A stretch of DNA of 64,000 nt from an uncultured Candidatus Saccharibacteria bacterium (lineage in GTDB: Bacteria; Patescibacteriota; Minisyncoccia; Phycocordibacterales; CAIRYW01). This document shows positions 48,290 through 48,832 of the stretch, piece by piece; position 1 is the first letter of the stretch, and the number at the start of each line of letters is the position of its first letter. The notes under the pieces are model-generated. The model worked only from the letters and a program-made list of their open reading frames with translations. It ran no database searches and was not told the origin of the DNA. Location of the stretch: positions 35,881 to 99,880 of the forward strand of contig CAYORS010000001.1 in NCBI GenBank assembly GCA_964406475.1. Direction: 5' to 3'. The translations under genes were made by a program, and so were the position numbers.

Positions 48290-48756
48290 CCCAGGAGTCG
48301 AACTTCTGGGGTGGGGGGACAGTAGGATGTCGATCATTACATGACCAGTACGCCTTTCGGCTAAAATTTTCTTGAAATCAATTTAAGGCTCAAAAGTTTT
48401 TCGATTCGCAAATACAATTAATAGGATCGCGAGTACGCTTATCGACCCTTACAGGGTGGGGTATATTGGTGCACTTTGTGGTCACGAATATTTTGCTTAT
48501 TGTCTCTTGCTTGGGCGCAGGGTGTGGTCACACATAAATTTCTACTGAAATTTTGCGATTCAATTAGTAGGACCGCGAGTACGCTTATCGCCCTCGACTA
48601 AATTCTGCTACCCGCAGAATTTGTCTGGGCACCAGCTCGTCTGTTTCTGAAGCTTCAGAAACATGACTTCGCTGTTCGATTCCTACACGCAGGCAAAATT
48701 GTTTGCCTGCTTGGGCGCACCAAAAATAAAACACCCGTTTGAGGGTGTTTTATTTT
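48290..48756. repeat. tRNA-Lys-associated structured repeat element, locus B
   Basis: TTACA-loop hairpins at 48333-48347 and 48444-48457. Two gcgagtacgcttatcg units 146 nt apart (48429-48444, 48575-48590). Module 48628-48662 about 94% identical to 387-421. Inverted T-arm copy gttcgattcctacac (48674-48688). Hairpin gcaggcaaa/tttgcctgc (48689-48710). Inverted acceptor copy ttgggcgcacca (48711-48722). 25-bp perfect palindrome 48712-48767 overlapping the tRNA-Lys 3' end. Confidence 0.5.
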
Positions 48757-48832
48757 TGGTGCGCCCAGTAGGAATCGAACCTACGACCCTCTCCTTAAAA
48801 GGGAGCTGCTCTACCGACTGAGCTATGGGCGC
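48757..48832 (-). tRNA. tRNA-Lys (anticodon UUU), CCA encoded
   Basis: Sense GCGCCCATAGCTCAGTCGGTAGAGCAGCTCCCTTTTAAGGAGAGGGTCGTAGGTTCGATTCCTACTGGGCGCACCA. Folded by hand; anticodon loop CTTTTAA. Confidence 0.9.

Follow-up and report, generated by a model that had tools for sequence, protein, structure and literature searches.

We present a class of small structured units that lie beside many transfer RNA (tRNA) genes across the Patescibacteria (Candidate Phyla Radiation, CPR) and that appear to be undescribed. Our starting point is the 3' flank of a tRNA-Lys gene in a 64,000-nt stretch of a Candidatus Saccharibacteria contig (CAYORS010000001.1); we call this whole stretch the window, and window coordinates refer to its full length. 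The units span about 110-200 bp of non-coding DNA, in which a conserved two-hairpin core is bracketed by direct and inverted copies of the end of the neighbouring tRNA gene. We favour, with about even confidence, the reading that they are non-autonomous, small, protein-less structured insertion elements that colonise Patescibacteria tRNA genes by targeting the T-loop and regenerating the tRNA end, and whose inverted copy is kept matched to the local tRNA by palindrome correction. The literature that we searched holds no description of these units, and the closest known kind is a tRNA-integrating island with miniature, trans-mobilised derivatives, akin to miniature inverted-repeat transposable elements (MITEs) or cis-mobilisable elements (CIMEs).

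At the tRNA-Lys gene (locus B), the original prediction had described a perfect palindrome, a hairpin and an inverted copy of the T-arm, and its coordinates proved exact, base for base. The arms of the 25-nt palindrome, 48712-48736 and 48743-48767, are 100% complementary around a 6-nt loop; the hairpin at 48689-48710 has a 9-bp stem and a 4-nt loop; and the inverted T-arm copy, 48674-48686, is 100% complementary to 48768-48780 over 13 nt. The right palindrome arm consists of one half of a terminator followed by the antisense of the CCA, A73 and the acceptor 3' strand, and the left arm mirrors it. A point absent from the original prediction is that the centre of the palindrome is probably just a symmetric intrinsic terminator, with arms of 14 nt each at 48723-48736 (AAAATAAAACACCC) and 48743-48756 (GGGTGTTTTATTTT) and a loop at 48737-48742. 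Here CACCC/GGGTG with an A-tract and a T-tract directly follows the tRNA, and a consensus terminator scanner made no call because the T-run pairs within the long stem. Ordinary terminators elsewhere in the window (53071-53102, 39117-39156 and 6117-6153) are equally symmetric, near-perfect palindromes of A-tract, stem and T-tract with arms of 14-18 nt; the terminators of this genome therefore appear bidirectional by design. At 29, 29 and 25 nt, the three tRNA 3' ends are the longest palindromes with short loops in the 64 kb, and their excess over ordinary terminators is therefore a 9-11-nt acceptor copy fused to the symmetric terminator. The architecture at tRNA-Lys is far above chance, and the segment 48567-48790 folds with z = -16 on either strand.

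The tRNA itself, tRNA-Lys(UUU) at 48757-48832 on the minus strand, scores 72.7 bits against the Rfam tRNA model and has, by the Rfam alignment, a canonical anticodon loop CUUUUAA and a single G27.A43 mismatch. ARAGORN labels the same interval 'tRNA-Stop(tta)', a suppressor tRNA, which the Rfam alignment rejects as a register error; the register shifts because the mismatch tops the anticodon stem.

The same order of terminator palindrome, inverted acceptor copy, hairpin and inverted T-arm copy recurs at tRNA-Gly (663-734, minus strand; locus A) and tRNA-Arg (53139-53213, plus strand; locus C), as had been claimed. Self-alignments of the window pair 484-728 with 53377-53145, 387-452 with 48628-48692 (80%) and 48422-48457 with 53387-53352 (92%). 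A 22-nt core motif common to three window units, TCGAYCMTTACAKGRYCAGTAC, served as a probe against contigs representing one genome per species. The units are neither confined to this genome nor missing from its relatives, for the probe matches at least 119 related loci in other genomes, almost all of them metagenome-assembled genomes of Patescibacteria; the matches listed include Paceibacterota, Kaiserbacteria, Lloydbacteria, Zambryskibacteria, Taylorbacteria and bins labelled Saccharibacteria, as well as the complete chromosome record OZ244961.1 (L025). A convergent tRNA accompanies 95 of the 122 listed hits, covering 34 anticodon types, the median distance between motif and tRNA 3' end being 150 nt; the remaining listed hits are mostly cut by contig ends or have a tRNA on the opposite side. 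Among 112 tRNAs not selected by the motif, an inverted T-arm copy (at most two mismatches in 11 nt) lies within 300 nt downstream of 42, as against 6 of 112 upstream. Viral contigs gave 14 motif hits, all chance matches inside coding sequence without flanking TCGA or tRNA, and these were discarded.

No protein gene or known RNA family accompanies the units. There is no open reading frame (ORF) inside them, and Pfam searches of the window flanks and of an insert at locus L039 (see below) gave no recombinase. ORF clustering within 4 kb on either side of 119 loci recovered housekeeping neighbours only, with no recombinase or non-housekeeping cluster enriched, and no autonomous transposase-encoding relative was found in 8-kb stretches around the loci. 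A search of the window and both flanks against Rfam 15, at the gathering score and with E up to 10, matched tRNAs only, the flanks yielding sub-threshold noise. By-eye resemblances to hammerhead, box C/D and T-box RNAs were rejected, none having the defining core.

Read antisense to the tRNA, a unit begins with a direct repeat of the tRNA 3' end that extends as far back as the TCGA of the T-loop, and runs through the two-hairpin core to yTTCGAwTCC with the T-stem 3' strand and AC; there follow a hairpin that we term hp1, T with the acceptor 3' strand, discriminator and trailer, the terminator, and the intact tRNA. One subfamily has a conserved mini-hairpin, CCGCGAGTACGCTTA, inserted at the far direct copy. 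The claim that the inverted copy matches the neighbouring tRNA's own sequence is borne out across the family, inverted copies fitting the local tRNA far better than the tRNAs of other loci. The near acceptor copy is perfect at 28 of 78 loci and has at most one mismatch at 41 of 78 (a control window is perfect at none of the 78), and the 8-nt acceptor segment of the far direct copy is perfect at 21 of 78 (control, 0/78). In the near copy the tRNA 3' strand is truly duplicated in inverted form, and both tRNA-derived segments copy that same strand. The near copy keeps the U of G.U pairs, for instance G2.U71 of tRNA-Glu and G3.U70 of tRNA-Ala (44 vs 13), and runs into the genomic trailer, not CCA, where CCA is not encoded; hence it reflects the gene and not the mature tRNA. 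Of 82 loci, 18 have perfect palindrome arms of 20 nt or more and 11 have arms of 25 nt or more; the arm measures 33 nt at L084, a unit devoid of hp1. The inverted acceptor copy directly abuts the terminator in many loci; the units at L022 and L166 are without any terminator. The decaying direct copy of the tRNA end on the far side, missed by the original prediction, is the signature of insertion at the T-loop.

That the design is not a simple dispersed repeat holds for the locus-specific copies, to which must be added a conserved, dispersed core of at least three types that adjoins them and had gone unnoticed. Covariance analysis across relatives, which had been suggested as a check, revealed strong covariation in the cores of types 1 and 2. 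In type 1, 95.1% of cells are paired as against 72.8% in shuffles, double-change cells number 162 vs 51, and the covariation score is 0.51 vs 0.14; none of 500 shuffles reaches the observed values, slid controls stay at or below 0.18, and the long-range stem shows compensated changes at all eight pairs. The type 2 core of locus B (48591-48674) has homologues at L107, L148, L176, L183 and L212, with 21 of 39 pairs compensated. A third type, GGTCAC...CTGCTGAAAAA..., has the same flanking architecture, and mosaics between the types occur. As several core types share one flanking layout, the invariant feature is a two-hairpin insert bracketed by T-arm sequence. Likewise, hp1 is kept as a hairpin at the same position across loci, with compensatory changes.

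Evidence for insertion comes from direct repeats and from the comparison of filled with empty sites. According to PMC4383910, a regenerated tRNA and a displaced fragment mark elements integrated into tRNA genes, and the far direct repeat of the units corresponds to this 'displaced fragment' signature. At L078 an insert of about 95 nt lies between near-identical repeats of 66-68 nt that comprise terminator, acceptor, T-stem and TCGA. The far repeat at L031 is diverged and 72 nt long, and the far copy at L118 has CCA and a different terminator. The synteny of holA with tRNA-Lys(UUU) seen at locus B is kept in 80 metagenomic relatives. In some of these (L195, L202, L157, L189 and L187) the site is empty: the tRNA lies 9-51 nt after holA with nothing or a terminator alone between them, and there is no inverted tRNA copy. 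Among the filled sites, L183, L176 and L148 carry type 2 units like that of the window. L166 carries a type 3 unit whose 18-nt far copy is perfect, L149 a hybrid, and L212 types 1 and 2 in tandem. Cores that are 91-98% identical occur in separate genomes beside unlike tRNA species, for example Glu/Gln, Arg/Glu, Arg/Gln, His/Arg and Glu/Trp, and in these the T-stem and acceptor copies each fit the local tRNA. A mirror arrangement places the same core upstream of tRNA-Arg(TCT) (L115, L051, L066) or tRNA-Cys (L025), in the order duplicated tRNA 5' part (1-53), TTGAA, hairpin, core, promoter-like TATAAT and intact tRNA. Constant across the normal and mirror layouts is a core inside a T-loop, beside an intact copy.

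Tandem and degraded units are frequent, and occur in the window and at L022, L052, L054, L084 and L212. The flank of locus B is itself a pile-up of several element remnants, which the original prediction did not report. The second type 2 hairpin domain of its proximal unit contains a perfect palindrome, 48642-48663, and the module at the far end of that unit recurs at the far end of 18 other units. Beyond it, 48321-48566 carries at least three remnants, with a stray TTGGGCGCA at 48511-48519.

From these features we infer mobility in trans, and the insertion chemistry, the enzyme, the intermediate, the direction of transfer and the palindrome correction would fit together as follows. The element would enter a tRNA gene at the T-loop TCGA by means of an enzyme provided in trans. 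The tRNA would stay intact, either through duplication of the stretch between T-loop and 3' end or thanks to a copy of this stretch on the element itself, and the old segment would be left behind as the far direct repeat. The element would bring or abut a terminator, so that inverted copy, terminator and tRNA end form a quasi-palindrome, which intrastrand template switching or gene conversion could then keep perfect, with the tRNA arm, being under selection, as the master copy. Correction of quasi-palindromes by template switching or gene conversion is known in other bacteria. Repeated insertion beside the tRNA, along with loss of older palindrome centres, would produce the tandem pile-ups. 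Such correction would explain the locus-specific match, the perfect palindromes of 25-29 nt, the perfect AT-rich arms, the near-identical cores at different tRNAs and the units without hp1. Inverted copies have on average 1.62 mismatches where the far copy is perfect and 1.21 where it has decayed, a weak trend that is not significant; that the inverted copy is no better beside a perfect far copy suggests that the match is maintained after insertion.

Several points weigh against this reading. Palindrome correction is proposed by analogy with other bacteria. No transposase, integrase or autonomous relative was found in the searches around the loci, and no excision junction or recent polymorphism within a population was seen. 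The empty sites come from distant relatives, with HolA 35-45% identical, and the duplicated segment, which ranges over about 13-70 nt, does not have the fixed length of a target-site duplication. A change of tRNA species would be hard to explain for an element that carries the tRNA end; if instead the target is duplicated, the inverted copy should mismatch at first, and the hints of this (L078 and the comparison by age of the far copy) are weak. Finally, a functional RNA would also be in keeping with the strong conservation and covariation of the core across the phylum and with the frequency of the units in very small genomes.

That last point leads to the main alternative, which we regard as possible though unlikely, namely that the units are a functional non-coding RNA family linked to tRNA genes: either a pseudo-tRNA encoded on the tRNA strand or an antisense RNA that pairs with the tRNA or pre-tRNA. 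The copies would then fit the tRNA because the RNA must mimic it or pair with it, and the pseudo-tRNA could arise by read-through from the tRNA promoter and be processed by tRNA enzymes. Besides the strong covariation, the retention of the motifs across the phylum and the prevalence of units in streamlined genomes, the sense-strand topology speaks for a pseudo-tRNA. Read in the tRNA sense, a unit runs through acceptor strand, hp1, T-stem, large 'T-loop', T-stem, acceptor strand and terminator, which amounts to a stem like that of an acceptor, with hp1 standing where the D and anticodon arms would be and the two-hairpin domain serving as the loop of a T-stem; the terminator that it would own is shared and bidirectional. 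Of the two strands, the tRNA-sense one also gives the core its lower folding energy, in 61 of 73 units of type 1, 5 of 6 of type 2 and 4 of 4 of type 3, and type 3 has conserved G.U pairs on that strand only. However, the sense strand is simply G-rich, and the bias vanishes once composition is controlled for, the z-scores of the two strands being equal (-4.6 and -4.5). G.U and A.C counts in the consensus core helices are about equal (24 vs 20), for which reason a DNA-level or strand-neutral constraint fits better than an RNA from one strand. Promoter scans gave no promoter-like site serving the units in either orientation, and a strong terminator separates tRNA from unit. The far copy, on which the acceptor stem of a pseudo-tRNA depends, is perfect at only the 21 of 78 loci noted above and decays without compensation, so that selection on a closing helix between far and near copy was rejected. 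Further, the copies track the genomic trailer, not the mature CCA end, the G.U identity pairs are turned into Watson-Crick pairs in the supposed mimic, orthologous sites are often empty, arrays of degraded copies resemble junk rather than genes, and there is no Rfam match.

More tentative still is a proposal that goes beyond our preferred reading, in which the units would form a new class of homing elements that lack protein genes and carry their own guide, and/or a new family of tRNA-mimic RNAs. Here the split inverted copy, made of acceptor segment, hairpin and T-arm segment, would pair, as RNA or single-stranded DNA (ssDNA), with the stretch of the tRNA gene from the T-loop to the 3' end. 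This pairing would delimit the stretch that is cut and duplicated, and a host enzyme or one acting in trans could thereby be steered to any tRNA. The guide would be rewritten from the target itself, and the two-hairpin core could be an enzyme handle or a ribozyme. The bridge RNA of IS110 insertion sequences (IS) likewise has a segment complementary to its target, and the hairpin-split complement of the tRNA recalls its order of guide, hairpin and guide; the retroviral primer-binding site is also complementary to a tRNA 3' end. Unlike the IS110 bridge (seek) RNA, the units have no IS110 recombinase nearby or adjacent ORF, and both of their segments complement the same strand. Unlike a primer-binding site, they follow the gene and its genomic trailer rather than the mature CCA end, and no reverse transcriptase is linked to them.

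We consider it doubtful that the units represent the scars of larger islands or prophages integrated in tRNA genes, in which attL-side and attR-side ends were joined by internal deletion to leave a regenerated tRNA, a piece of element DNA and a displaced tRNA fragment. The repeat does span the T-loop to the 3' end, which Williams is said to have described in 2002 as a classical integrase sublocation. The far copy at L118, with its CCA and different terminator, and a 2.77-kb insert at the tRNA end beside the unit at L039 also accord with such an origin, and such islands are defined, according to PMC4383910, by a tRNA that is regenerated and a 3' fragment that is displaced. Yet at more than 100 loci neither an integrase nor kb-scale cargo remains between the 'ends', and hundreds of species would not have arrived through independent deletions at one and the same 110-200-bp unit with its covarying hairpins. 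The same core stands at 34 tRNA types, and known attP sites lack an inverted copy of the tRNA.

The L039 insert deserves description in its own right: it is a 2.77-kb segment (L039:4480-7257) between the unit's terminator with 'GTGACCC' and an intact tRNA-Glu(CTC), and its ORFs of 473 and 387 aa have no Pfam match. It resembles a small island that has entered the acceptor/T-stem junction, the position taken by hp1 in the inverted copy.

Very improbable, in our judgement, is an extended terminator or 3'-processing signal, whereby selection for termination or pre-tRNA maturation lengthened the hairpin into the acceptor stem and the rest of the flank is unrelated. It draws on the symmetric, probably genuine terminator at the palindrome centre and on the many loci where the acceptor copy directly abuts it. 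Against this, the empty orthologous tRNA-Lys sites have terminators without an acceptor copy, the L022 and L166 units have no terminator, and tRNA folding would face competition from a trailer paired to the acceptor 3' strand; nor does the signal account for the inverted T-arm copy beyond a conserved hairpin and adjoining a conserved core, or for the direct copy further out. A chance palindrome or an artefact of assembly or rearrangement can be dismissed, nothing having been found in its favour, since the architecture is seen in more than 100 independent assemblies, including the complete chromosome OZ244961.1, a further, independent assembly of this genome shows 100% identity over 5.3 kb, and the covariation is strong and the folding z-score -16.

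The features of the three loci in the window are collected in Table 1. The genes that flank them (holA, a DoxX gene, rpsT for S20, and a Fic gene, by Pfam on the flanks) are all reported as housekeeping neighbours. Of the look-ups for close relatives, the S20 query gave nothing and the holA query returned the same genome alone.

Table 1. Positions of units, unit parts, tRNA genes and signals at the three loci of the window.
Feature	Position	Strand	Basis or remark
Locus A: tRNA-Gly(GCC), without encoded CCA, last gene of the tRNA-Arg(TCG)/tRNA-Gly unit	663-734	-	ARAGORN, Rfam
Locus A: proximal unit, type 1	485-662		alignments; inverted repeat 29 nt, 97%
Locus A proximal: far copy	485-497
Locus A proximal: core motif	494-515
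Locus A proximal: inverted T copy	576-587
Locus A proximal: hp1	590-608
Locus A proximal: inverted acceptor copy	610-619
Locus A proximal: terminator arms	620-638 and 643-661
Locus A: distal unit, mosaic type 2/3 core	338-483		sequence, alignments
Locus A distal: inverted T copy	434-447
Locus A distal: degraded hp1
Locus A distal: acceptor copy	470-481
Locus B: promoter-like site of tRNA-Lys, TAGACT-16-TATATT, TG-extended	48862-48889	-	consensus scan alone
Locus B: encoded CCA of tRNA-Lys(UUU)	48757-48759	-	Rfam tRNA match
Locus B: probable symmetric bidirectional intrinsic terminator of tRNA-Lys	48723-48756		inner part of 25-nt inverted repeat
Locus B: inverted copy of acceptor 3' strand, A73 and encoded CCA (TGGGCGCACCA, reads tRNA sense)	48712-48722	+	outer part of 25-nt inverted repeat, 100%
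Locus B: hp1, GCAGGCAAA-ATTG-TTTGCCTGC, splitting the inverted copy at the acceptor/T-stem junction	48689-48710		kept across loci at same position, compensatory changes
Locus B: inverted copy of T-loop and T-stem 3' strand (GTTCGATTCCTAC)	48674-48686	+	13-nt inverted repeat, 100%
Locus B: conserved type 2 core, two hairpin domains (48591-48629 and 48633-48674)	48591-48674		80% identical to window 387-452
Locus B: relic direct T-arm copy (GTAGGA), conserved mini-hairpin (CCGCGAGTACGCTTA) and TCG; far boundary of proximal unit	48567-48590	+	repeats
Locus B: older degraded units	48321-48566		repeats, alignments; compare L149
Locus B: type 3-like hairpin	48523-48560		older degraded unit
Locus B: remnant ending in half hp1 and TTGGGCGCA	48476-48519		older degraded unit
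Locus B: type 1 5' part with mini-hairpin	48422-48465		older degraded unit
Locus B: type 1 partial	48321-48408		older degraded unit
Locus C: tRNA-Arg(GCG), encoded CCA	53139-53213	+	ARAGORN, Rfam
Locus C: unit, type 1	53214-53399		alignments; inverted repeat 29 nt, 100%
Locus C: terminator and palindrome	53203-53261
Locus C: acceptor copy	53250-53261
Locus C: hp1	53263-53281
Locus C: T copy	53284-53295
Locus C: core	to 53367
Locus C: core motif	53346-53367
Locus C: mini-hairpin	53368-53382
Locus C: far copy	~53383-53399

At locus A the distal, older unit has lost its terminator and palindrome centre by deletion. The far ends of the arrays at loci A and B show G-runs, at 308-316 (G9) and 48309-48319 (GGGGTGGGGGG), each followed within a few bases by ACAG; these may be an older module or homopolymer tracts. 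Beyond the far end of the locus A array, an AT-rich stretch holds a perfect DnaA-box consensus, TTATCCACA, at 255-263 (and also at 243-251), and this stretch may lie near a replication origin. A gene at 742-2385 on the plus strand, by eye similar to CCA-adding enzymes, starts beside the tRNA-Arg/tRNA-Gly operon whose tRNA-Gly is without encoded CCA, and a Fic/DOC-domain gene (53486-54634, minus strand; Pfam match) lies directly beyond the locus C unit.

Two further observations concern the surveyed contigs. The cores at L049, L059 (binned as Patiriisocius) and L072 (binned as Acidimicrobiales) are close to that of the 'Saccharibacteria' contig L043, those of L059 and L072 being identical to each other and 98% identical to L043; these three contigs are probably Patescibacteria placed in wrong bins. 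At L061 the tRNA downstream of the unit (antisense GTGCTCCGGCGGTAGGATTCGAACC...) was missed by ARAGORN and appears to be interrupted beyond the anticodon region; an intron such as those in PMC13011429 is the probable cause. That paper reports group I introns in the anticodon loop of Patescibacteria tRNA, a feature different from these units.

Set beside known systems, the units share with tyrosine-integrase islands of the Islander type (PMC4383910) a tRNA target, a regenerated gene and a displaced 3' fragment that persists as a far direct repeat. They also share a repeat that starts in the T-loop, a classical crossover sublocation, and tandem accretion at the same tRNA. They depart from such islands in their size of about 110-200 bp, with neither integrase nor cargo, and in having a covarying two-hairpin core, an inverted target copy beside a terminator and a range of 34 tRNA species. 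With MITEs and CIMEs, as these are generally understood, they have in common that they are small, non-coding and multi-copy (at least six units or remnants at three loci in the 64 kb of the window), fall into subfamilies, form mosaics and degraded copies, and lack a linked enzyme gene. Unlike both, they are without intrinsic terminal inverted repeats, their inverted sequences being copies of the local tRNA T-arm, and their duplication is a variable tRNA segment of about 13-70 nt instead of a short fixed target-site duplication; they are also strictly specific for tRNA T-loops and have no known parent element.

A third comparison is with repetitive extragenic palindromes (REPs) and bacterial interspersed mosaic elements (BIMEs) with their REP-associated tyrosine transposases (RAYTs), the palindrome-associated transposable elements (PATEs) of IS200/IS605, and group IIC introns. 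Group IIC introns insert after terminators. The units resemble these systems in being hairpin-rich and associated with terminators or structured DNA, and their covariation, with G.T and A.C counts about equal, is compatible with an ssDNA intermediate. In contrast to the units, these systems leave no long direct target repeat and carry no target copy, and they have recognisable enzymes or ribozymes, whereas the units have no link to Rfam or Pfam; the long direct repeats in particular argue against the PATE/REP elements of the IS200/IS605 type.

The units may rank among the commonest non-coding features of Patescibacteria genomes, where they flank roughly a third or more of the tRNA transcription units in genomes of 0.6-1 Mb and correspond to no Rfam family. 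They would show how selfish or functional DNA that has no integrase gene itself can find a safe harbour in tRNA genes, and would explain the long perfect palindromes at tRNA ends, which are able to disturb assembly, tRNA annotation and island-finding software. They also offer a natural system for palindrome homogenisation. Were the inverted copy to have a guide-like role, it would represent a new route to target-specific DNA insertion; and if either the guide or the tRNA-mimic RNA reading is true, the units would be categorically new.

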